Assembly (NCBI GenBank): GCA_014728035.1
Contig: WJMJ01000059.1
Coordinates: 311,758 to 375,757, forward strand
From: Promethearchaeota archaeon
GTDB lineage: Archaea; Asgardarchaeota; Thorarchaeia; Thorarchaeales; Thorarchaeaceae
Direction of reading: 5' to 3'
DNA length: 64,000 bases
In this document: in pieces, positions 16,238-42,852 of the stretch
Layout: the number at the start of each line of letters is the position of its first letter
Position numbering within the stretch: position 1 is the stretch's first letter
Notes under the pieces: model-generated
The model's database searches: none
Seen by the model: the letters and a program-made list of their open reading frames with translations, nothing else
Told to the model about the DNA's origin: nothing
Translations under genes and position numbers: made by a program

Positions 16238-17524
16238 CTAACTGTTCATTTGTTCTAACTGTATCCATATGAGTTCAGCTAGACTTGTACCACCAAATTC
16301 TTCCATTTCCACTTCCCTACTCATATTCTCCCATGCATGATTTCCATAGATGAGTTTTAGCAATGCAACCTCGGTTTCATCATCCCCCTCAGAATACCGC
16401 CACAATTCAATACGATTATTGTTGCTGACTTGGACTGATGGTGTTTCTGAACAATTATTGGCATTTAACCAGAACTGAATCGAATAGTTAACTGACAGGT
16501 CAACTCTATCTGCCAAGAATCCCTTCTCTCCTTTTCCTCCCTCATACAACACCTGTTCATCCAATACTCCATGAACATGAAGTATCGAAAGTGGATCAGA
16601 CGGTTGTGGAATTACATACAGATCGCTGTCCTCTGTCATTCTTCCTCCTACACTTCCAGAAACGGGAGCTATTGCAGTCAGTATTTCTGAATGTTCAGCT
16701 GCAAATCGGTAGGTCATCATTGCTCCGTTGGAATGCCCTGTCATGTAAATCTTTGATTGGTTTACCTTGTATGTTGCAATAAGATCCTGTATCAGATGAT
16801 AAAGAAATGAAACATCACTAGCATTATTCTTGTACGCATATGCATCAATATATCCTGAGTTCCATGTGTGGAATTGATATTCCATATCTCCTAACCCGTC
16901 TGGATATACTACTATGAATCCATATTCATCTGCAATTGTATCAAATCCATACGAGTTCTTCATACTCTTAGCATTGCCTCCTCCGCCATGAAGAGCTAAA
17001 AGTAATGGAATGTCACCCAGTTCGTTATAATTTTCTGGCAGATGTAGGAGATACTGTCGTTGTGTTTCTCCAATGGTTATGTAGCTATAACCAGTAGACT
17101 GTGAACGAAGTGTTGCAAACAGTGGGAGTAAAATTAACAGACCAATTATGGAAATAGCAATCAAACGATTTCGTTTAAGTTTAGATTTATTCCCGTACAT
17201 TATTAGAAAAGCGCCTATAATTCCAAGAATTGTGCCAAGGAATATCCCTGTACCAATCAATACTCCCCATATTGCTGAAAGAATAATGATGATTGGCCCC
17301 ATCATACTCCATCTCGTAGATAGTATTGTACCTAATATCACAAGAATACCGAAAAGCATACCACCTATCGCTAGAATAATACCTGTAGATGGCATTATAG
17401 TGGCAAGTAATAGACCGAAATAGGTGAATCTTAGCCCATTGAGAAGGAGAAGGATACCTCCGACAATAGCAGTTATCCCTCCTAATCTGATGAATCGACT
17501 TGTTTCTTCAGAATTTACACTCAT
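16238..17524 (-). CDS. Membrane-anchored LpqC/PHB-depolymerase-like esterase
   Basis: N-terminal TMs, LALHGGGG, VVYPDG, GHSNGAMM nucleophile elbow, HGVLD, GNHAW. Confidence 0.85.
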   Translation of the reverse strand: MSVNSEETSRFIRLGGITAIVGGILLLLNGLRFTYFGLLLATIMPSTGIILAIGGMLFGILVILGTILSTRWSMMGPIIIILSAIWGVLIGTGIFLGTILGIIGAFLIMYGNKSKLKRNRLIAISIIGLLILLPLFATLRSQSTGYSYITIGETQRQYLLHLPENYNELGDIPLLLALHGGGGNAKSMKNSYGFDTIADEYGFIVVYPDGLGDMEYQFHTWNSGYIDAYAYKNNASDVSFLYHLIQDLIATYKVNQSKIYMTGHSNGAMMTYRFAAEHSEILTAIAPVSGSVGGRMTEDSDLYVIPQPSDPLSILHVHGVLDEQVLYEGGKGEKGFLADRVDLSVNYSIQFWLNANNCSETPSVQVSNNNRIELWRYSEGDDETEVALLKLIYGNHAWENMSREVEMEEFGGTSLAELIWIQLEQMNS

Positions 17525-17576
17525 ATCTCCTGATCCTCTCTGATATGAATAGGCGTTATGGATGATTAATACTCTG

Positions 17577-18026
17577 TTATTCGTTTTCAATAATTGGACG
17601 AATGCTGCTAGGTGTAGTCAATCCTCTAACCTCGACTATTCTGGCACCAAATCCACCAATTAATCCTGCAAATAACCATGTGAGATATGCTGTATCAAAT
17701 CCAAACACAGATGAAATTGTAGATATGGAAAGTGCACTGAAAACGATAACATCAGCAAAGAGTGTCAAGCCCGCAAACAACAAACCCGCAATCATTCCCT
17801 TTACAAGTGCACAGATTTGAAATTTTAGACTACATCCTCCCCCAACTAGATTTTTGTATATGATTGGAGCTGTCATTAGTACTAATATGATTGGAATCAC
17901 CCACCGAAGCTGTATTAGTAGAGTGGATACTGAAGATAATACGATGCTCAAAAAATAAATTGGAACCCAGTAGACGGGAACCCAAAACCATGTTCTAATC
18001 TCATCCAAGTAACTCATTCTCTTCAC
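17577..18026 (-). CDS. Hypothetical 4-TM membrane protein
   Basis: Hydrophobic ORF with GGGCSLKFQIC motif. Confidence 0.7.
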   Translation of the reverse strand: MKRMSYLDEIRTWFWVPVYWVPIYFLSIVLSSVSTLLIQLRWVIPIILVLMTAPIIYKNLVGGGCSLKFQICALVKGMIAGLLFAGLTLFADVIVFSALSISTISSVFGFDTAYLTWLFAGLIGGFGARIVEVRGLTTPSSIRPIIENE

Positions 18027-18080
18027 TGTAACAGTTTTCTTTTTTCTATTGATTACTTCTTGGGTATGGTCTCGTTTTAC

Positions 18081-18099
18081 TAGTCACAAATTGTGACTA
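18081..18099. promoter_or_regulatory. 19-bp palindromic operator
   Basis: TAGTCACAA-A-TTGTGACTA between divergent transcription units. Confidence 0.65.
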
Positions 18100-18129
18100 C
18101 TTCCAGTGTCCTATAATCGTGGCTTTCCA

Positions 18130-18136
18130 TTATATA
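18130..18136 (+). promoter_or_regulatory. TATA box of the small-peptide operon
   Basis: TTATATA about 32-38 nt upstream of ATG 18168. Confidence 0.55.
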
Positions 18137-18167
18137 CTGATTCTGAGTAGTAATCTTGTGAACAATC

Positions 18168-18272
18168 ATGGCGTTAGCGATTAACTCCCGACCCAACTCA
18201 GAGACGAAGAACATCACCTGCAAGAAGCAGAGTACCAAGGCACTCGCATATGCTTACACCTACCGGAGGTAG
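18168..18272 (+). CDS. Small basic peptide 1 (34 aa) MALAINSRPNSETKNITCKKQSTKALAYAYTYRR
   Basis: ATG after TATA; paralogous to the next sORF; 3' end carries GGAGGT RBS for the next ORF. Confidence 0.65.
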   Translation: MALAINSRPNSETKNITCKKQSTKALAYAYTYRR

Positions 18273-18278
18273 AACACA

Positions 18279-18362
18279 ATGGCGGTATCCAAGATTAAGA
18301 TCATCAAGGCAACCAAAACTCCCTCAACCAAGGCTATCACTGATGCCTACTTCAGGAGGTAA
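18279..18362 (+). CDS. Small basic peptide 2 (27 aa) MAVSKIKIIKATKTPSTKAITDAYFRR
   Basis: GGAGGT RBS 8 nt before ATG; shares STKAxxxAY..RR with peptide 1. Confidence 0.72.
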   Translation: MAVSKIKIIKATKTPSTKAITDAYFRR

Positions 18363-18367
18363 TATCG

Positions 18368-18472
18368 ATGAAGCCTAGCGTTGAAGATATTCTATCAATT
18401 CCCACTCACCAAGACTCTAGCAAGAGCGGTGACCTAGCTACAAGCGAAGTGCTCGCGTTGGAAGCAACCTGA
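18368..18472 (+). CDS. Small acidic peptide 3 (34 aa) MKPSVEDILSIPTHQDSSKSGDLATSEVLALEAT
   Basis: AGGAGGT RBS 7 nt before ATG; followed by T-rich sequence. Confidence 0.65.
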   Translation: MKPSVEDILSIPTHQDSSKSGDLATSEVLALEAT

Positions 18473-18654
18473 GCACACACTCTTTCAATTTACTCTATCC
18501 TTCGGACCTTATTCAATAGATATAATTCTGAATAGTGTATTAGAAAAGAGGTTGAATTGTTTATAATTAATTATTCCGACCAACTCATTGAAGAATTATT
18601 TTGGAAGTTGACTTATAAAATACAAATAGTTCAATGTAATGTGATTCTCGAACA

Positions 18655-19377
18655 ATGCCCGATCAAGATAATCGCCCAATCGCATTGGATGTCTATGAAG
18701 AGATTGCAGAAAGCTATGCTGCAAAGGTGGATACCAAAGCGCATAACGCATTTATCGACTGGCCTGCAGTAACATCTTTACTTCCAAATCTGAACGACAT
18801 TCTCGTATTAGATGTTGGTTCTGGGCCTGGAAGATATGCTGAATATCTCCTTGAAAATAGTGCAAAAGTAGTAAGCATTGATGTAAGCTCTAATATGCTC
18901 AGGTTGGCACGTAGAAGAGTAAGGGAGCAGTCAAATTTCATCAGAGCTGATATCGAGTATAATCTTCCGTTCTTGAATTCAGATATCTTTGACTTGGTTC
19001 TTTGCCCCTTGGTTCTTGACTATATTTATGACTGGCATAAGACGTTCAGAAGATTTTCCGAACTTCTGAAAAAAGACGGGCTATTGATTTTTTCTGCTGG
19101 ACATCCATTTGATAAAGCATTCATTCGTTCTAAGCGTGAATACTTCTTGGTCAAAAGAATGGAATATCCCTGGAGTGGTTTTGGAAAGCGTGTTATGATG
19201 CAATATTACCATCGTCCTTTGTCTGACATGATTGGTGCACTTCACAGCTCTGGGTTTATTATTGAAGAGCTTCTCGAACCACGACCTATTAAGGAATGCA
19301 AGCAAATGGACCCTGAAACATACGAAGAGTCTAATTCATGGCCGAGTTTTATCTGCATCAAAGCACGTAACAGTTGA
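18655..19377 (+). CDS. Class I SAM-dependent methyltransferase
   Basis: VLDVGSGPG, IDVSSNML, FDLVLCPLVLDY. Confidence 0.9.
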   Translation: MPDQDNRPIALDVYEEIAESYAAKVDTKAHNAFIDWPAVTSLLPNLNDILVLDVGSGPGRYAEYLLENSAKVVSIDVSSNMLRLARRRVREQSNFIRADIEYNLPFLNSDIFDLVLCPLVLDYIYDWHKTFRRFSELLKKDGLLIFSAGHPFDKAFIRSKREYFLVKRMEYPWSGFGKRVMMQYYHRPLSDMIGALHSSGFIIEELLEPRPIKECKQMDPETYEESNSWPSFICIKARNS

Positions 19378-19431
19378 CAAAACATCTGTAAGTTTATTAA
19401 CTACAGAGAAAAATCGCGCTGAGGAGTTGCT

Positions 19432-20277
19432 ATGAACGAAACTGATTCATCATCTAATCAAGTTTTTGTAAGAAAGCATACATTCTTTGTATTCTCGCTA
19501 TTATCACTTGTAATTGGATTCATTGGTTATCTGCCAATGGTTTTGGCTGAGTATGGGATGTTCTCCCAAGATATAGTTGCACCATTTCTACTCTTAGGTG
19601 GTGGATCTCCTACTATTGCAGCTGTAATTACAGCTATTCTTGCTTTCGGCGGTGATGGGGCAAAGAATATCTTTTCTGGCTTTACTCGAGAAATCACACA
19701 AAAACCAATGATTGTTGTTGCTATTCTTTTGCCGTTTATTACATTCTATGCTGCAATTGCTCTTATGGTCATTGCTGGTTCCTCTCTACTATTCTTAGAT
19801 GCAAGCTATGCCGTGTTTCTCCCCATTTTACTAAGCAATTTTCTAATGAACATCTGGGAAGAAATTGGTTGGCGAGGTTTTGGATTGCCAACCTTACAAA
19901 AAACTCAGAATGCCTTTGTATCTAGCATTATTCTTGGAATCGTGTGGTCTCTTTGGCACTGGCAATATTTTGTAATTCCAAATAGTGCTCAGATTGAAAT
20001 CTATGGGAATTTCCTCATCTTCTCTATACATACAATTGTTGTGACAATTCTTTATACCTGGATCTATAATTCAACTAACGGTAATCTATTTTCAGTTACT
20101 TTGTATCACGCAATCACCAATACTGTTGGATTTCTAATTTATTCCACAGGATTTGTAATTCCTGCAATATTTACTCTTGGAATCAATTCTGTTCTTGCAA
20201 TAGTCGTCATTGTGATTTATAGAGTCAAATCACTATCTTCAGAAGAGAAAGTCACAATTGACCAAATAATGGAATAG
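19432..20277 (+). CDS. CPBP (CAAX/Abi) intramembrane metalloprotease
   Basis: EEIGWRGF, WSLWH, HAITN. Confidence 0.9.
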   Translation: MNETDSSSNQVFVRKHTFFVFSLLSLVIGFIGYLPMVLAEYGMFSQDIVAPFLLLGGGSPTIAAVITAILAFGGDGAKNIFSGFTREITQKPMIVVAILLPFITFYAAIALMVIAGSSLLFLDASYAVFLPILLSNFLMNIWEEIGWRGFGLPTLQKTQNAFVSSIILGIVWSLWHWQYFVIPNSAQIEIYGNFLIFSIHTIVVTILYTWIYNSTNGNLFSVTLYHAITNTVGFLIYSTGFVIPAIFTLGINSVLAIVVIVIYRVKSLSSEEKVTIDQIME

Positions 20278-32357: not shown

Positions 32358-32498
32358 TTATTCTTCAATTATTTCTCTGGTCTTTGTTATTAGATTAGGA
32401 TTCAGTCCCATTAGTGTGGCAAGAATTTTTCTGGTTAACGGATCCGCCAGCAGTTCTAATATTCTATCTGTCTGGTTTCCCTTTCCCTCATTTTTCAT
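32358..32498 (-). pseudogene. 46-aa ArsR-HTH fragment
   Basis: MKNEGKGNQTDRILELLADPLTRKILATLMGLNPNL..., overlapping the upstream stop, with GAGGT RBS. Confidence 0.5.
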
Positions 32499-33285
32499 AC
32501 ATATCAACCTCCAGCACTTCTGCATGTGTATATGCTCTCCTGAAGTAGAATACTGCTACAGCGAGAAATACAACTCCTATAACTGACATTACCAATGCTT
32601 CTATTGAAGGAATTACAAGTGGCCCCGAGTATGATAGAGCAATAATGAGAATGGCTAGAACAAAACCTGTTACTGAGGCGATTGTTACCGCAAGGAAGTT
32701 ATTCCTATTTGGCGAGCGTATCAAAAACCAGTCTGGTTGAAGAAAGATTATTGCTGAAATACCAACTTTTAGTCTTCTAATCATTCTTCCCACCTTAATC
32801 ATGGATCTTCCCAAAACTAGAATGCTAATTGTGGCGACGATTGCTCCGATTTGCCATCCAAAAACATTCTCACTGATTGAAATTCCAATGATGATGAGAC
32901 TGAAAATCACTCCCATAAATCCAAAAACGAGACCCATTTGATTCATATAAAGGCTGACTTCTTGTTTTGGACTCATGGATAATACTGCGGATAAGACACC
33001 GTATTTGTCAATCTTTCTTTCTTCTTCTACCTGGTCTAGCAAAATCATTGCTTTTTTCCCAAGTTCAGATATTCTGTATTCTTCTCCTGTCTTCTTAATC
33101 AATCCTACTTCAGTCAGCTCTTTAAGATGATAATTGAACTTCCCACTCATTAGATATGGATCAAGCCCCAATACCTTCATTATCTCTGAATATGTTGCTG
33201 AGCCCTTTCGTGCAATCTGTCGCATGATTGATCTGCGTGTCGAATTAGACAGTGCTTTCAACACATCTTCGGAATCCGCATTCAT
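32488..33285 (-). CDS. ArsR-family winged-helix regulator with four C-terminal TM helices
   Basis: LKALSNSTRRSIM, FNYHLKEL..GLI, Y.ISELG, then TMs. Confidence 0.85.
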   Translation of the reverse strand: MNADSEDVLKALSNSTRRSIMRQIARKGSATYSEIMKVLGLDPYLMSGKFNYHLKELTEVGLIKKTGEEYRISELGKKAMILLDQVEEERKIDKYGVLSAVLSMSPKQEVSLYMNQMGLVFGFMGVIFSLIIIGISISENVFGWQIGAIVATISILVLGRSMIKVGRMIRRLKVGISAIIFLQPDWFLIRSPNRNNFLAVTIASVTGFVLAILIIALSYSGPLVIPSIEALVMSVIGVVFLAVAVFYFRRAYTHAEVLEVDMYEK

Positions 33286-33327: not shown

Positions 33328-33382
33328 TTGTCACTAATTTTATTGACAATATCGTTTTTCGATTGTCAAAACTGTTTGACAA
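33328..33382. promoter_or_regulatory. Tandem TTGTCA/TGACAA inverted-repeat operators
   Basis: TTGTCA-N10-TGACAA at 33328-33349 and TTGTCA-N8-TGACAA at 33363-33382. Confidence 0.6.
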
Positions 33383-33595
33383 ATCTGATTTTCTTCTACC
33401 AATACAATTCTCGTGTTTTTGTAATGTCATAGAATTTGAAATCCCACATCTCATTTCTATGTGATATATTGCGCAGATAGAAGCAACCATTCCTTTATTT
33501 ACATCCTACTATCTTGTCCATAGTAACAAATTGAGTCCATTAGTTGTGGCTATCGATTATATATTCATTGGACACAAAAGATATGGTGACTATCA

Positions 33596-35047
33596 ATGAG
33601 CCTGACAGCTAGATTCTTTGGATTTGAAAATCCAACCGAGCAGGGTCTAAAACTTGCAAAGACAATGGCATCTCTTGTCCCTGTGTTCTCTATGACTTTC
33701 CAAATCAGTACAACATTCTATATGTTATTTATTGCTGAAGCATTAGGTGATGGTGATGCAGTTAAAGGAATGGCAATTGTAGGTGGTCTTGTTGCACTCC
33801 AATTCATTGTCCAAGTAATTCTTGACTATCCCACTGGCGCAGTCGGTGATTGGGTCGGACAAAGATATGTCATTATGTCAGCTCTGTTATGTTATGCCGT
33901 GGTGTTTTTCCTCACCTCACAACTCACTCCAGACCCTCCGCTAATACTTCCCATTCTTATCTATGCTCTCTTCGGACTCGGAATCTCTCAGGAAAGTGGA
34001 GCTTGGGGAGCTTGGTTCGATAACAACTATCGTGTTGCTATGCCTCATGATACCAAACGTGAAGAATACGGTGTATTCTCCGGAAAGCTTGGCATGATTT
34101 CGCAGATATCGGCAACAGCAGTTCTCGTTCCTGGAAGTTGGATTGCTCTCTATCTTGGTCGAGCTTGGGTATTTCAATTGCAAGCTTTACTGTTCATTGT
34201 TTTAGCTATACTTGTTCATAGATATGTACGTGACCTTCCTGAAGTAGAGGAACAACGCTCCGAACGTCCAGAAATGGGTGATTATGTCGGACTACTAAAG
34301 GATGGTGTCCGGTTTATCTGGTCAAGTAAGTTTTTCCTGTTACTATTCATTGGTGAGATGATCTTTTTCAGTGTTGGGCCTGTCTGGGGTAATCTAATAC
34401 TCTGGCCATTCTACAATGTGTACCTTCAGAGTGATGTTGCAATCTCAACATTTCGTACTCTTATGTTTCTCCCACTCGCTATGACAAATGAACGAAGTGG
34501 AATTATTGCAAAGAAATATGAACCAAATACATGGATTCCTCGTTTTCGCTTATTTGCTTTCAATGGTGCAGCATTCTATTTCTTGCTGTCGATGATGTTC
34601 TTTATTGTTCCGCCACCTCCAATGGGCACTACAGCAACCGTTCAGTTGGTTATACCTTTCATCAATCTCCCTCTATTCGTGCTTCCTATAGCATCAGTAA
34701 TACCTATCCTAATGATATTCATAATTTTCTTAATCACCTCCTTGTTTGGATCTGTTGGTGGTATTCTTACAAATCGAGTACTGCTTGATGTAGTACCAAA
34801 TAAAATAAGAAATGGCATGTACTCACTTCGTGCAACATCATTTACTGCAGCATCTATACCACTGCTAGTCTTCTTTGGATGGCTGGTACCATCTTTTGGT
34901 TTCTCACTAGCTTTCCTTCTAATGGGCATCATCTCAACAGTTGGAGTTGTCTTGATTGCTATGAGTTTTAAACAGGATATTCCAAAAGCAGGAGATATTG
35001 AGATTGAAGCAGTAGAATCAGAAGAAGTACTTGAAGAGATAACTTAG
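33596..35047 (+). CDS. MFS transporter
   Basis: DYPTGAVGDWVGQR motif A, SQESGA..AWFDNNY, 12+ TM. Confidence 0.85.
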   Translation: MSLTARFFGFENPTEQGLKLAKTMASLVPVFSMTFQISTTFYMLFIAEALGDGDAVKGMAIVGGLVALQFIVQVILDYPTGAVGDWVGQRYVIMSALLCYAVVFFLTSQLTPDPPLILPILIYALFGLGISQESGAWGAWFDNNYRVAMPHDTKREEYGVFSGKLGMISQISATAVLVPGSWIALYLGRAWVFQLQALLFIVLAILVHRYVRDLPEVEEQRSERPEMGDYVGLLKDGVRFIWSSKFFLLLFIGEMIFFSVGPVWGNLILWPFYNVYLQSDVAISTFRTLMFLPLAMTNERSGIIAKKYEPNTWIPRFRLFAFNGAAFYFLLSMMFFIVPPPPMGTTATVQLVIPFINLPLFVLPIASVIPILMIFIIFLITSLFGSVGGILTNRVLLDVVPNKIRNGMYSLRATSFTAASIPLLVFFGWLVPSFGFSLAFLLMGIISTVGVVLIAMSFKQDIPKAGDIEIEAVESEEVLEEIT

Positions 35048-35280: not shown

Positions 35281-36150
35281 ATGTGTGAATGGTGCCTAAA
35301 GCATGGTGATGGTGGAAAATGGTATGAGAATGCCAGATTGTATTCTGATGAATTAGCCAACGAATATAACCTACGTGAATATCTTGAAGAGCAATGGAAG
35401 AACATGGAAACTCTCTTCATTCGTAAAATTATGGGCTTTAGTTCAGTTGGTCTCGGCTATAAAATGCAGATGCCAATTATTGGAAAGATTATACGCAGAG
35501 CTGCTGAATCACAGATCCACAGTGAAGACCATGGACGCAATCCAGCCAGAGCTGATGGCCATTTCGGGCAGGTCATACCATTAGAAGATGCCCAACATAT
35601 CATTGGAAACCTCGCAGCAGAACCAATCATCAAGAACTATTGCGTATGTCGATGGATGCAACGCGGAGTAAAAGATGCTGTCTGTATAAACTTTGGACAA
35701 TTGTCTGGTGTGATTGAGAAACTTCCACGGTACATTCCTGAAGATGTAAAATATCGATTAGACCGTGAAGAGGCCATTGCAGCTCTTGAAGAACAGAATA
35801 AGCGAGGTTATGTTGCATCTGTCTGGTTCCAACCAGTCCCTTACATCAATGCTGTTTGTTCCTGTGAAAGTCCAGAATGTGGTGGTCTCAGACTTCGAAA
35901 CGATTTTGGTCTTAAGACTGTTTACAAGGCTGAATATATCATCAATGTCAATCAAGATAACTGCCAAGGTTGTCAACAATGTGTAAAAATGTGCCAGTTC
36001 AATGCATTACGTTATCTTCCATCCGTGAAACGAGTGATTGTGGATTTGGACAAATGTTTTGGATGTGGTGTGTGTCGCCATGCCTGTAAACATGATGCTC
36101 TAGAGCTAGTTCCTAGGAGTGAAGTCCCCGGCCAGGCTGGAAGATTCTAG
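35281..36150 (+). CDS. 4Fe-4S dicluster protein
   Basis: MCEWC..HG...KWY, CVCR, CSC...C, CQGCQQCVKMC, CFGCGVCRHAC. Confidence 0.88.
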   Translation: MCEWCLKHGDGGKWYENARLYSDELANEYNLREYLEEQWKNMETLFIRKIMGFSSVGLGYKMQMPIIGKIIRRAAESQIHSEDHGRNPARADGHFGQVIPLEDAQHIIGNLAAEPIIKNYCVCRWMQRGVKDAVCINFGQLSGVIEKLPRYIPEDVKYRLDREEAIAALEEQNKRGYVASVWFQPVPYINAVCSCESPECGGLRLRNDFGLKTVYKAEYIINVNQDNCQGCQQCVKMCQFNALRYLPSVKRVIVDLDKCFGCGVCRHACKHDALELVPRSEVPGQAGRF

Positions 36151-36158
36151 GAGGTCAC

Positions 36159-36443
36159 ATGATGAAAAAGACAAAAATCAAAATCGACTACTCAAAATGT
36201 GGTCCTGAAGGAGCTACTGATCCTCGGGAATGCAGAAAATGTATGCATGTGTGTGACCCTGCAGTGTTTCTAATGCATCCCACTCTGGATAAACATCCAG
36301 ACCCATGGAATCCTGAATTGTGGAAGGTCACAGCGGTATGGCCCTCTATGTGTATGGGATGCAACAAATGTGTGGAAGTCTGCCCTGAGCAAGCTATAAG
36401 CTTAGACTTTGGTGAATCTCTTCAGATGATTCGTGCTCCTTAA
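36159..36443 (+). CDS. Ferredoxin (2x4Fe-4S)
   Basis: C...CRKCMHVC and CMGCNKCVEVCP; GGAGGT RBS. Confidence 0.88.
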   Translation: MMKKTKIKIDYSKCGPEGATDPRECRKCMHVCDPAVFLMHPTLDKHPDPWNPELWKVTAVWPSMCMGCNKCVEVCPEQAISLDFGESLQMIRAP

Positions 36444-39733: not shown

Positions 39734-41998
39734 ATGAGGTCAAGAACACGCGAGATACTTAGAATAGTATTTGGTATACTGACGATATGTCTGATTTTGA
39801 TTATATTTGTATTAAGTGACCCTCCTTGGGATACACATGGATCTGGAATAGCCTTCTATTCTGTCCTGGCATTTCTGTCTGTAATTGCTACTGCTACAGC
39901 TCTTGGTAGAGTACGAATGGATGCGTCTCCAACTCACAAAATAATGCTGAGTGGGCTGGCATTTCTGTCACTCCTCAATATTGGTGCTGCATTATTCAAT
40001 TTCTTTGATGTATTTTCTGTAGGACATATTCGTTCATTTGGAGTATTCTTTGCCCTGCTTGAGCTAACTCTATTTAGCATTTTCATGTTGGTTGCAGGAT
40101 GGTTTAACACTCACCGAGCAAAAGAAAATTCAATCTGGCGTTCGAAAAAATTCATTCCTATTTTGATTGTTGTGCTAATTTCATTATATACCTCTAGCTA
40201 TCTTCTTACAATGAATCTCACACTTGATTTCATTTTCATTCCGTTTGGATATCTATTAGGAATCATTGCAATCGTATGTTTTCTTCTATCAGCTTATCTA
40301 CATATCTCGCAACCTAATGGGCTTTCAGATAACGATCCAATACGACTGCTCTTCATGAACATCCTATTTGTATTCGCATCAATTGTTATGCTAATCATTC
40401 TTCCAGCTCCAAGTTCGTTATGGGTTCTATCCCTTACATTTCAAGCCTCAGCTCTATTGTTTGCAAGTATTGCCATCGGCTACCCTATTCTTACTGACCT
40501 TGGCTTGAGTAAAAGAATGGCATATGGTCTCGTGATTGCAATTATTTCTCTAATCATTCTTCCATTCGTTCTCTCTCATCTGATTGAGATATGGCTGCCA
40601 TTGGTAGAATATGTGAATGTGGGGGTTTCCGTGATAGTTCATAGCGGCGGGGTTGTATTTACGCTTGTAATGGGATTCATATTATATATGAAAGCACGCG
40701 CAAAGGCAGCTTGGTATCATTCTCCCATTATCTTTCTTCTATTTTCATGGAGTATTTTTGAATCCTCTATAGTAATCTTCCACCTTTTGCCACAGTATTA
40801 TGGAATATCTGAACCCTTGGTCCCTTATGTTGGAGGAGGTATCATCTCTACAATTGCATTCTTGATTGCTATCAAGAAAATCCTTTCCACTTCCGAGAAA
40901 CCTCCAAAAATATCAAAGATTGCTCATTTGATAGGGTATGCTTTTGTCATTGCCATAGTCGTAATTGGTGAAGTCATTCAGAATCAGCTATTTGCAATGT
41001 TTCCTTTCTTGATTGATGGCATTCTTGGTGGAATTGTTCTGTTAGCTCTTGCATATGTTTCAACGTTTGTAATGATTAGTTTCATACTGCTATTAGTTGC
41101 TGAATCCGGCCAGAAGGCGACATTTGAACTAGTAGCTGCAGGGTCTCAATCATTATGGATTGTTTCTCTACTTCTTCGTGTCAATTTTTCAGTTTGGACC
41201 GCAGGATGGTGGATGGCTGAAGCGGTTATAGGTGGTGCAATAACAGTATTTCCATTCATTTTGACTTATTTCTACATTAGAGACATATCTTTAACCCAAA
41301 GGTATGAAAATCAAAGTAAGGTGTATGCACATCTGCTAAAAGAGGATATAGAATATCCACATTCACTAGCAATAGATGCAATTCATAAACTGAGTGGTGA
41401 TCCTATACTCACCGATAGTAAGTTAGAAAGTCTATCTGAAGCACTTGGTCAGATCTCTCATGCAGATGAGATGACTCGTGTTCTTCGTCTACTTATTGAA
41501 TCTGATATATATGACAAACGTGATTTCGAATCAACTAATCTTGTGAATAGCATTCGTGACGCATTTGAACAACTCCAAGCATCTAATCCTCAAAGACGAC
41601 TAGAATTGAAATTGGAATGTATTCCAGGTGAATGCTCTGTTAGGAGTGATCATCTTCTTTCAACCTCTCTATACTATTTAATGGATGGTATCGTTCAACG
41701 TGCAGAATTAATTACTACCTTTGAAGTTATTATTGACCAACATCCAAAACAATCTGAAATGTGGAGCGTTCAAATCAAAGTAGATATGTCTGGGGAGACT
41801 CTTGAACAACGTCAGAATCTTCTGCGTAGATACATTATTTCTGTGTCTTCTGGGGGATATGAATTCTTATTGATGCGTCGATTGATACGAATGATCGGTG
41901 GCAAAATCAATATGGAAACTCCTTCGGATTCAGAATCAAATGAACTTCTGTTTACTATATTACTTCCAATCGCAGAAGATGCAGAAAGTCCAATCTAG
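39734..41998 (+). CDS. Polytopic membrane sensor with degenerate histidine-kinase-like C-terminus
   Basis: ~15 TM, then HisKA/HATPase-like remnants (LMRRLIRMIGGKI, FTILLP). Confidence 0.7.
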   Translation: MRSRTREILRIVFGILTICLILIIFVLSDPPWDTHGSGIAFYSVLAFLSVIATATALGRVRMDASPTHKIMLSGLAFLSLLNIGAALFNFFDVFSVGHIRSFGVFFALLELTLFSIFMLVAGWFNTHRAKENSIWRSKKFIPILIVVLISLYTSSYLLTMNLTLDFIFIPFGYLLGIIAIVCFLLSAYLHISQPNGLSDNDPIRLLFMNILFVFASIVMLIILPAPSSLWVLSLTFQASALLFASIAIGYPILTDLGLSKRMAYGLVIAIISLIILPFVLSHLIEIWLPLVEYVNVGVSVIVHSGGVVFTLVMGFILYMKARAKAAWYHSPIIFLLFSWSIFESSIVIFHLLPQYYGISEPLVPYVGGGIISTIAFLIAIKKILSTSEKPPKISKIAHLIGYAFVIAIVVIGEVIQNQLFAMFPFLIDGILGGIVLLALAYVSTFVMISFILLLVAESGQKATFELVAAGSQSLWIVSLLLRVNFSVWTAGWWMAEAVIGGAITVFPFILTYFYIRDISLTQRYENQSKVYAHLLKEDIEYPHSLAIDAIHKLSGDPILTDSKLESLSEALGQISHADEMTRVLRLLIESDIYDKRDFESTNLVNSIRDAFEQLQASNPQRRLELKLECIPGECSVRSDHLLSTSLYYLMDGIVQRAELITTFEVIIDQHPKQSEMWSVQIKVDMSGETLEQRQNLLRRYIISVSSGGYEFLLMRRLIRMIGGKINMETPSDSESNELLFTILLPIAEDAESPI

Positions 41999-42006
41999 CC
42001 CAATCG

Positions 42007-42852
42007 CTATGAGATATGTCTTTGGATAAGCTCGGTTATTAACTCTGCAATCATAAGAGCTCCGGTTGAATTAAGATGAAGATAGTCCGCATGAAGCTGA
42101 AATCCGCTATCTTCAGCTATTCTATCCCATGATCGTCGTAACAAGTATCTCTTTAGCACTCCCTTTGCAATCTCAATGTATGAATCTCCGTATTCATAAT
42201 TCGGACTGCTTGGGTTATCTTCTAGATATTTCTCCATTTCTTCATGAAGTGCAAGATATTCTACTCCATGTTTCTGGGCAAGTTCCTTAATGGTGATACT
42301 ATATGCCCGACTTTGTTTACACTCTGTTGAATCAAGATCTTCACCAATTGTCGGTATTGAGAGAATGGCAATGAATGAATCTGTTTTTGTTTTTAGCTGC
42401 CTAATAATTTTCGAAAGATTTGATTTGAACCAAGCATGGTCTGGCTCTTGCGGTAGATTCATTCTCTTAATTGCACGACTTCTATTCTTTGGGGTCAGAG
42501 CGTCATTTGCATCATTTGTACCAATCAAGATTGTAACTACATCTGGATCGCAAGCAATAATTTCGTCTAATCGTTGGAGGAGATTCCATGTCAATTGGCC
42601 ATTTATTCCTGCATTTATGAACTCGAATCTGGAATTGTTTAATTCTCTCGAAACGAATTTTATGTAATTTTCTCCAATTCTTCCATGAGTTATACTATCT
42701 CCCGCAAAAACAATTACCGATTTGTTGCCCTTTTCCTTCTTCTTCAAATATTCACTTGGCGTATTATCTGGTTTTTTCGTTCCTTGATAAAATGCATTTA
42801 GTAGTGCAATAGACATGATGATACTGAAAAGGATTAACACAAGCTCTAGCAT
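42007..42852 (-). CDS. SGNH/GDSL hydrolase
   Basis: GDSITHG, NAGING, IGTND, DYLHLN. Confidence 0.92.
   Translation of the reverse strand: MLELVLILFSIIMSIALLNAFYQGTKKPDNTPSEYLKKKEKGNKSVIVFAGDSITHGRIGENYIKFVSRELNNSRFEFINAGINGQLTWNLLQRLDEIIACDPDVVTILIGTNDANDALTPKNRSRAIKRMNLPQEPDHAWFKSNLSKIIRQLKTKTDSFIAILSIPTIGEDLDSTECKQSRAYSITIKELAQKHGVEYLALHEEMEKYLEDNPSSPNYEYGDSYIEIAKGVLKRYLLRRSWDRIAEDSGFQLHADYLHLNSTGALMIAELITELIQRHIS

Follow-up and report, generated by a model that had tools for sequence, protein, structure and literature searches.

A multicopy micropeptide operon specific to one family of Thorarchaeota, with a presumed operator that also precedes MFS transporter genes

The window, by which we mean the entire 64,000-nt stretch of DNA that was analysed, contains a gap of 628 nt (18027-18654) that separates two long ORFs, the first ending at 18026 and the second starting at 18655. 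A preliminary description, made from the sequence alone, had reported in a gap of more than 500 nt three head-to-tail small ORFs (sORFs) of 34, 27 and 34 aa, with their own promoter and operator upstream and a T-rich tract downstream. Each of these elements was recovered: three sORFs of the reported lengths on the forward strand, hereafter P1, P2 and P3, a palindrome and a TATA box in place before them, and a T-rich tract that follows a hairpin. The features of this region are as follows:

18081-18479, forward strand: complete unit, comprising palindrome, TATA box, P1, P2, P3, and hairpin with T-rich tail
18081-18099: presumed operator, a perfect 19-bp palindrome, at the 5' boundary of the repeated unit
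18106-18111 and 18119-18124, forward strand: two additional conserved boxes, similar to half-sites of the palindrome
about 18130-18137, forward strand: archaeal TATA box
18168-18272, forward strand: P1 (ORF1), 34 aa, basic, net charge +6
18265-18270, forward strand: Shine-Dalgarno (SD) sequence GGAGGT for P2, made of the last Arg codons and stop codon of P1, 8 nt before the P2 ATG
18279-18362, forward strand: P2 (ORF2), 27 aa, basic, paralogue of P1
18355-18360, forward strand: SD sequence GGAGGT for P3, made of the last Arg codons and stop codon of P2, 7 nt before the P3 ATG
18368-18472, forward strand: P3 (ORF3), 34 aa, acidic, net charge -4
18449-18476, forward strand: 11-bp hairpin (arms 18449-18459 and 18466-18476, 6-nt loop 18460-18465)
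about 18481-18492, forward strand: T-rich tail, 3' of the hairpin
18655-19377, forward strand: SAM methyltransferase gene, downstream of the unit
19432-20277, forward strand: CPBP protease gene, downstream of the unit

DNA searches recovered three more copies of this unit from its own genome (G000), with 96, 93 and 88% identity, on contigs C151, C25 and C9, as well as five copies with 80-82% identity in a congener (G001, a MAG labelled Candidatus Thorarchaeota archaeon BC) and partial matches in most genera of the same family. The similarity among the paralogues begins sharply at the palindrome and ends a few bases past the stop codon of P3, and it is these borders that delimit the unit as 18081-18479. 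The GC content is 0.46-0.50 within the unit versus 0.26-0.37 in the flanks. An inverted repeat further out (18045-18055 and 18510-18520) flanks only this copy and was taken to be a chance occurrence, and a tRNA scan of the whole window returned none.

The palindrome is presumed to be the binding site of a dimeric transcription factor. Across about 15 genera, 40 units carry it with little variation and at a constant distance of 46 nt upstream of the motif containing the TATA box, and the two half-site-like boxes keep a fixed spacing in 36 of the 38 units that were first found by similarity. A promoter consensus was also derived from 111 units, in which those positions that had been set by the search pattern are invariant by construction. 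Going by the usual archaeal spacing, in which the TATA box is centred near -26, transcription is predicted to start about 8 nt before the ATG of P1, and for this reason the leader of P1 is expected to be short or absent; P1 itself is not preceded by an SD sequence. At the opposite end, the hairpin overlaps the last codons of P3, its TGA stop codon and the next four bases. Across 17 distinct sequences 93% of the cells are paired and three of the pairs display compensatory changes; none of 500 shuffles reaches the score of this hairpin, and registers obtained by sliding the arms pair in 21-50%. The copy in the window has one C-C mismatch, and T-runs are found downstream of the hairpin in relatives. 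We presume that the hairpin functions as a terminator or as a stabiliser of the 3' end, and that it marks the 3' boundary of the unit. The double constraint of peptide and stem is reflected in the DNA identity of this stretch at the end of P3, which is 91-94% in most matching genera and as low as 83% in a few.

The paralogues in the same genome have unrelated neighbours: copy B has a DsrE-like gene on one side and the RNase P RNA, followed further out by Cbf5, on the other, copy C is preceded by a DsbD-like gene, and copy D is adjoined by a luciferase-like oxidoreductase. These differing surroundings, the sharp borders of similarity at both ends, the promoter that the unit carries and a hairpin backed by covariation establish it as a regulated and autonomous operon that has a promoter and a presumed operator of its own. 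High expression of the unit is a plausible prediction.

The Arg-Arg-stop codons that close P1 and P2 do double as GGAGGT ribosome-binding sites 7-8 nt before the next ATG, as had been pointed out in the preliminary description, and this overlap of each SD sequence with the preceding stop codon is a layout that indicates coupled, and roughly equimolar, translation of the three peptides. Its further proposals, that P1 and P2 are paralogous and basic while P3 is acidic, likewise hold: P1 and P2 share direct repeats at 18234-18257 and 18327-18350 (75% identity) and at 18260-18271 and 18350-18361, and at the level of families both carry a net charge of +5 to +6 with a pI of 10.6-10.8, against an average net charge of -3 for P3. 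The P1 family, with 101 distinct homologues, has a mean length of 34.5 aa and a pI of 10.6. In the family alignments P1 is conserved at its N-terminus and in a C-terminal motif, with a variable middle, and P2 is conserved at both ends, varies in the middle and usually terminates in Tyr-Phe-Arg-Arg. The best-conserved part of both is made up of the approximately 13 C-terminal residues next to the stop codon. P3 has a variable N-terminal part of about 25 residues followed by eight nearly invariant terminal residues (EVLALEAT). The basic peptides are hydrophilic, with GRAVY values of -0.47 and -0.54, contain 0.2% Trp and nearly no Cys, and possess neither a signal or leader sequence nor a hydrophobic segment. 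AlphaFold2 modelled P1 as one helix spanning residues 8-33, with low confidence (mean pLDDT 65, which is too weak for a fold search), and a prediction of a P1-P3 complex using alignments scored 0.00, a value that counts neither for nor against binding.

The patterns of substitution in the three sORFs are those of protein-coding genes. Conserved Ala, Thr and Asn columns of P1 use 2-4 synonymous codons, Ser, Thr and Ala columns of P2 that are invariant or nearly so (one Ala is kept in 50 of 50) use four codons each, and a Leu located 13 residues from the end of P3 is kept with six different codons. Between copies, substitutions are concentrated at synonymous sites, and the pooled pN/pS is 0.53-0.75. 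Indels within the ORFs measure 3 or 6 nt, including a 3-nt in-frame indel in P3 by which the paralogues differ, whereas a 1-nt indel is seen in the spacer between P1 and P2, in three of the copies of the congener. The frame of P3 stays open across unrelated N-terminal sequences. A six-frame search with the P1 profile yielded more than 400 matches, and all among the matches listed are open and span 26-60 codons, nearly all of them 32-39. Conversely, a search of positions 17000-20000 against Rfam at E <= 1 gave no match and the whole transcript folds no better than its shuffles (z = -0.69), and a structured non-coding RNA was rejected on these grounds together with the codon-following substitutions. 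The preliminary description had named, as observations that would speak against it, homologous loci without conserved frames, starts or ribosome-binding sites, or with covariation of RNA structure in place of codon conservation. What we find at the homologous loci is conservation of frames, starts and SD sites alike, with substitutions that follow the codons and with covariation at the 3' hairpin only. Judged by these signatures, the three sORFs are protein-coding and specify translated micropeptides.

Units were collected by the promoter alone, first from relatives and then by searching 185,579 species genomes with a promoter pattern of fixed spacing. This pattern was found at no fewer than 118 loci, and wherever these have a lineage name it is Thorarchaeota or the broader label Asgard. 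In virtually all complete units the first ORF is a homologous one of 32-38 aa, the ATG of which lies 88-89 nt from the start of the palindrome. Of 85 genomes belonging to one Thorarchaeota family (f1), 79 gave between 1 and 12 matches each to the P1 profile, as against none of the 315 genomes searched from other Asgard families. Searches of Pfam and NCBIfam with P1, P2 and P3 at E <= 10 recovered no match, look-alikes of P1 in the ESM Atlas included no usable match, and the three peptides of the window, together with four from relatives, were absent among 15 billion predicted proteins. A profile search of 1.84 billion representatives gave 42 matches, about 40 of which are metagenomic singletons of the same family, 30-100 aa in length and either unnamed or called 'hypothetical protein'. 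Two of the 42 are long proteins in which many stretches matched; the one that was identified, a Bartonella YadA-like adhesin, was taken to be spurious. We found no literature on such peptides in Thorarchaeota. Thus, this is an undescribed, lineage-specific family of micropeptides, confined to one Thorarchaeota family. HMM-based calls of modules on 119 units showed that the architecture seen in the window, P1-P2-P3, is present in 37, P1-P2 in 24, P1 alone in 19 (some of which are cut by the ends of loci), P1-P1-P2 in 11 and other architectures in 18; in the remaining 10, which are truncated or have a P1 of a divergent subfamily, no module was called.

A comparison with the congener bears on how the copies have come to be alike. 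Both flanks of copies B, C and D match those of three copies in G001 (g1e, g1b and g1d, respectively), and for the copy of the window (copy A) only the upstream flank matches, at g1a; at this orthologous locus the upstream genes for a membrane protein and an esterase are kept and those downstream encode a DinB-like protein and a P-type ATPase. The identity between units is 84-95% within G000, 87-94% within G001 and 77-83% between the two. Given that syntenic copies thereby resemble their paralogues more than their orthologues, concerted evolution is indicated: the four dispersed copies of G000 occupy old, fixed sites and are kept alike by gene conversion. A MITE-like element was considered and rejected, as the ends of the unit have no inverted repeat common to the copies, no target duplication is common to their flanks and the copies sit at syntenic sites in the two species; moreover, viral contigs contained no match to the promoter pattern.

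The palindrome and TATA box are not confined to the peptide operons. In the window itself they also precede a gene for an MFS transporter (operator at 33521, ATG at 33596), and elsewhere in the genome they are found at the end of contig C8 before a divergent P1-like sORF with an MFS gene behind it, before a membrane protein gene (contig C10) and before a bactofilin-like gene (contig C16). The last two instances, involving a bactofilin-like protein and an unrelated membrane protein, imply that the regulon is broader than peptides and pumps. Of the 93 units that have a long ORF in the same orientation downstream, 16 have an MFS_3 (DHA3-type) gene at a distance of 6-97 nt and 15 an MFS_1 gene that is lineage-specific and belongs to one family with the gene at 33596. 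In NCBIfam the MFS_3 type falls with TIGR00900, an H+ antiporter subfamily, and its weaker matches, namely EntS, Mef, Tet(V) and, at 38 bits, a 'ryptide export' transporter, are all exporters. P3 occurs in 0 of the 31 MFS-linked units versus 44 of the 88 others (Fisher p = 4e-8, a value that is overstated since related genomes are not independent). As both P3 and the hairpin are missing from the MFS-linked units, about a quarter of the total, P3 with its hairpin and the pump gene are alternative endings of the operon. About 40% of the units have neither P3 nor a pump in cis. The MFS_1 family is multicopy within the Thorarchaeota family; in the near-complete genomes G005 and G016 neither MFS_1 nor P1 was found, and two others (G020 and G011) have MFS_1 without a clear P1. 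Two candidates for the regulator that binds the operator were examined and set aside: an ArsR-like regulator with an upstream ORF of the RR-stop type (G000 contig C25, 306393-307366), the promoter of which lacks the palindrome, and a membrane-anchored ArsR-type protein encoded divergently from the MFS gene of the window (32488-33285), which has upstream repeats of another type.

These observations point, tentatively, to a reading that we prefer without regarding it as probable: P1 and P2 may be trans-acting basic effectors that are handled by the co-regulated MFS pumps, with the acidic P3 as an alternative partner. P1 and P2 would be made in bulk when the regulator fires, the pumps, of which the MFS_3 type belongs to the DHA3 class of drug/peptide exporters, would deal with them by export or by protecting the producing cell itself, and in the stand-alone cassettes P3 could take the place of the pump as a protective or escorting partner. 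The cassettes are stand-alone, numerous (1-12 P1 matches per genome) and homogenised at syntenic sites, suggesting products that are required in large amounts and work in trans. Likewise, the sharing of operator and operons with exporter-type pumps and the interchange of P3 with the pump suggest effectors that are exported or guarded against. However, the peptides lack a signal or leader sequence, about 40% of units would have to do without P3 or a pump in cis, genes for a bactofilin-like and an unrelated membrane protein are under the same operator, MFS_1 is present in two genomes without a clear P1, and the co-regulation of the pumps is equally compatible with other readings. The hydrophilic composition (GRAVY about -0.5), with scarcely any Trp or Cys, is unlike that of membrane-active bacteriocins or modulins and argues against an action of that kind. 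A more specific version, in which unmodified leaderless micropeptides are exported as antagonistic or signalling effectors, with the DHA3-type MFS pumps as both exporter and immunity factor and the acidic peptide as an intracellular antidote, seems rather doubtful to us.

A second suggestion of the preliminary description, that the products are small nucleic-acid- or ribosome-binding peptides with an acidic partner, is possible but on the whole we lean away from it. Here P1 and P2 would be intracellular stress proteins that bind nucleic acids, ribosomes or another acidic surface, P3 would be their acidic partner or chaperone, and the pumps would simply be fellow members of a stress regulon. 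The strong positive charge (net +5 to +6, pI 10.6-10.8) of hydrophilic peptides devoid of an export signal is what such a function would entail, a single helix, as modelled for P1 with low confidence, would be compatible with it, high copy number with concerted evolution is as seen for dosage-sensitive abundant proteins, and the non-transport genes under the operator would find a natural place. Nevertheless, this proposal leaves unexplained both the presence of pumps within the same operon and the mutual exclusivity of P3 and the MFS gene as the third cistron, and no similarity to known chromatin, ribosomal or RNA-binding families was seen in Pfam, NCBIfam, the ESM Atlas or the 1.84 billion representatives.

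Bacterial micro-proteins such as MntS, MgtS and AcrZ tune transporters, and P1 and P2 could by analogy act as small regulatory subunits, binding to the co-regulated MFS proteins and adjusting their activity. Two MFS families share the operator and operons with the peptides and their presence is correlated across genera, but 4-12 stand-alone cassettes per genome lie far above any stoichiometric need, the peptides have no hydrophobic segment, and P3 is left without a role, making this an unlikely explanation. We consider it still less likely that P1 and P2 are cis-acting leader peptides that arrest the ribosome and thereby gate the next cistron, be it P3 or a pump, a role that leader peptides have at certain bacterial efflux and resistance genes. 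The concentration of conservation in the roughly 13 C-terminal residues by the stop codon, the overlap of this codon with the next SD sequence, a length of 33-38 aa, close to that of the ribosome exit tunnel, and the position directly upstream of DHA3-type pumps in 16 units would all suit such a mechanism. The peptides lie upstream of an MFS gene in 31 of 119 units. However, most units, such as that of the window, are stand-alone, with a terminator-like hairpin and nothing but a 34-aa peptide to regulate. Furthermore, multiple copies and gene conversion speak for a product that is required in trans, conservation extends to the N-termini as well, and no alternative RNA structures were found, with z = -0.69 for the transcript and support for the 3' hairpin only.

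The preliminary description had also proposed, from the methyltransferase and CPBP genes that follow on the same strand, that the peptides are precursors of RiPPs or signals matured by these enzymes, and had called for a check on the conservation of this neighbourhood. The proposal did not survive that check: the adjacency is local to this one copy, the three other paralogues have quite different neighbours, and neither gene is found downstream of the orthologous unit in the congener. Since the neighbours differ in this way, a RiPP reading built upon them fails. The methyltransferase gene has a TATA-like box of its own about 35-43 nt before its ATG, and no methyltransferase or CPBP cluster recurs among the 93 units, beside which the only recurring families are the MFS transporters and a GNAT protein 650-750 nt past the last module (8 units). 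Neither a conserved leader with a variable core nor the reverse is discernible in P1 and P2, both ends being conserved with no hypervariable core. Taken together, maturation by the adjacent enzymes is highly improbable, though maturation by a modifying enzyme encoded elsewhere would be compatible with these findings. Least probable of all is a non-coding element with incidental ORFs, be it a structured RNA or a mobile miniature element, which could be imagined from the multicopy state with sharp boundaries and from a promoter region (unit positions 1-87) and 3' hairpin better conserved in DNA than the bodies of the ORFs, but which is already contradicted by the strong synonymous-codon signature and the in-frame indels.

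No part of archaeal genomes is charted less well than the small proteins, and we know of nothing on record concerning small proteins of Asgard archaea; a conserved, multicopy and tightly regulated micropeptide operon offers a clear case for this group. It also provides a defined regulon for study, comprising the operator, the peptides, two MFS families, a bactofilin-like gene and a membrane protein, as well as a clean example of concerted evolution in tiny genes, and illustrates that 'empty' intergenic gaps in Thorarchaeota genomes can contain entire operons. If the exported-effector reading were true, the operon would represent the first interaction system built on peptides in Asgard archaea, lying below gene-calling thresholds and maintained in up to a dozen gene-converted copies.

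Among known systems, small toxin-antitoxin pairs share with the unit a coupled operon under a palindromic operator, in which small basic products come before an acidic one. The peptides described here are far smaller than the partners of type II systems, and such an assignment was rejected because they have no Pfam or NCBIfam match and P3 is absent from most units, in some of which a pump stands in its place. Leader-peptide control of efflux genes, as exemplified by the mef/mel and cmlA/fexA leaders, likewise involves short ORFs that immediately precede DHA-type MFS pumps and have their stop codon close up to the ribosome-binding site of the following gene. However, most of the present units regulate no downstream gene, and their peptides are long, wholly conserved and multicopy. 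The psm-alpha operon of Staphylococcus aureus encodes the phenol-soluble modulins, which a dedicated pump exports, protecting the producer as well. It too has tiny paralogous peptides arranged head to tail on a short transcript, with no signal peptide, is highly regulated, and too long went unannotated. In contrast to the peptides studied here, the modulins are amphipathic hydrophobic helices, their exporter is of a different type, and psm-alpha has no acidic third peptide, multicopy state or such palindromic operator. Finally, aureocin A70 and enterocin L50 are products of leaderless multi-peptide bacteriocin operons of Firmicutes. Tandem paralogous cationic peptides of about 30 aa without leader or signal, a small protective gene and/or transporter in the regulon, and a variable number of peptide genes are common to these and to the operon described here, and the tandem small cationic peptide genes without leader or signal by which leaderless bacteriocins are recognised are indeed found in the Thorarchaeota unit. 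Bacteriocins are amphipathic, hydrophobic and usually Trp-containing helices, whereas P1 and P2 are hydrophilic and free of Trp; the sequences show no similarity, MFS proteins take the place of ABC transporters, and the unit is archaeal, chromosomal and present in 4-12 homogenised copies. Leaderless bacteriocins are also characterised by antimicrobial activity and a dedicated immunity or export function, and in this respect the observations comprise the association with MFS pumps and the exclusivity between P3 and the MFS gene. Hence, although it is not a member of these groups and bears no sequence relationship to them, the Thorarchaeota operon would resemble leaderless bacteriocin and modulin operons in its logic.

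A palindrome and TATA box that represent a variant of those heading the cassette (the presumed operator and promoter of the P1-P2-P3 micropeptide genes) were detected at 33521-33560 of the window, upstream of an MFS transporter gene that is followed by two genes for 4Fe-4S proteins and faces a divergent gene for an ArsR-type wHTH protein. An operator of the cassette type together with a TATA box was also found before two further genes elsewhere in the same genome, which indicates that the regulon is wider than the peptides and pumps.

Genes at or near cassette-type operators in the window and its genome
33596-35047: MFS transporter
35281-36150: first downstream 4Fe-4S protein
36159-36443: second downstream 4Fe-4S protein
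32488-33285, minus strand: ArsR-type wHTH protein, 265 aa
Contig C16, 15748-17075 (locus L059): bactofilin-domain protein, 411 aa
Contig C10, 33648-34608 (locus L058): membrane protein, 290 aa, without a family match

The sequence of the ArsR-type protein suggests that it bears a C-terminal membrane domain, and the intergenic region adjoining its gene contains a different, TTGACAA-type repeat at about 33338-33385.

In units where two P1-type ORFs precede an MFS_1 gene, of the same family as the transporter at 33596, the spacer at unit positions ~200-345 is highly conserved at the DNA level (L069, L082, L094, L107, L124, L129, L134 and others). It contains three or four GGTCAC/GGTCAG/GTGACC boxes followed by a P1-like start context. 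Although this spacer can be read as a 42-codon ORF, its appearance is rather that of an additional operator or promoter.

About 5.3 kb before the window (contig C25, 306393-307366; L060), a 36-codon ORF with the same start context as P1 ends in an Arg-Arg-stop that spells the SD of an HTH_20/ArsR-like regulator; no palindrome was found upstream of this ORF.

The window's cassette copy is bracketed by an 11-nt inverted repeat (91%; 18045-18055 and 18510-18520), whose arms lie 26 and 31 nt outside the conserved boundaries. As it is absent from the other copies, it is probably a chance occurrence.

The cassette promoter with a typical P1 was also recovered from one MAG labelled Candidatus Hermodarchaeota (L084, JBHLLF010000018.1). 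Either this bin is contaminated or wrongly labelled, or the cassette is also present, though rarely, beyond the Thorarchaeota.

Paralogue B, the copy on contig C151 of the window's genome, is convergent with an archaeal RNase P RNA (41695-42028, L002:1153-1486; RF00373, 160 bits), with 15 nt between the two 3' ends. A convergent tRNA, lying ~60-190 nt past the cassette end (~560 nt in L086), is seen in L063, L072, L086, L088, L089, L103, L106, L122, L140, L171 and L173; it is an intron-containing tRNA-Leu in all except L072, which has a tRNA-Ser with no intron noted. These tRNA-linked loci probably represent one locus conserved across species.
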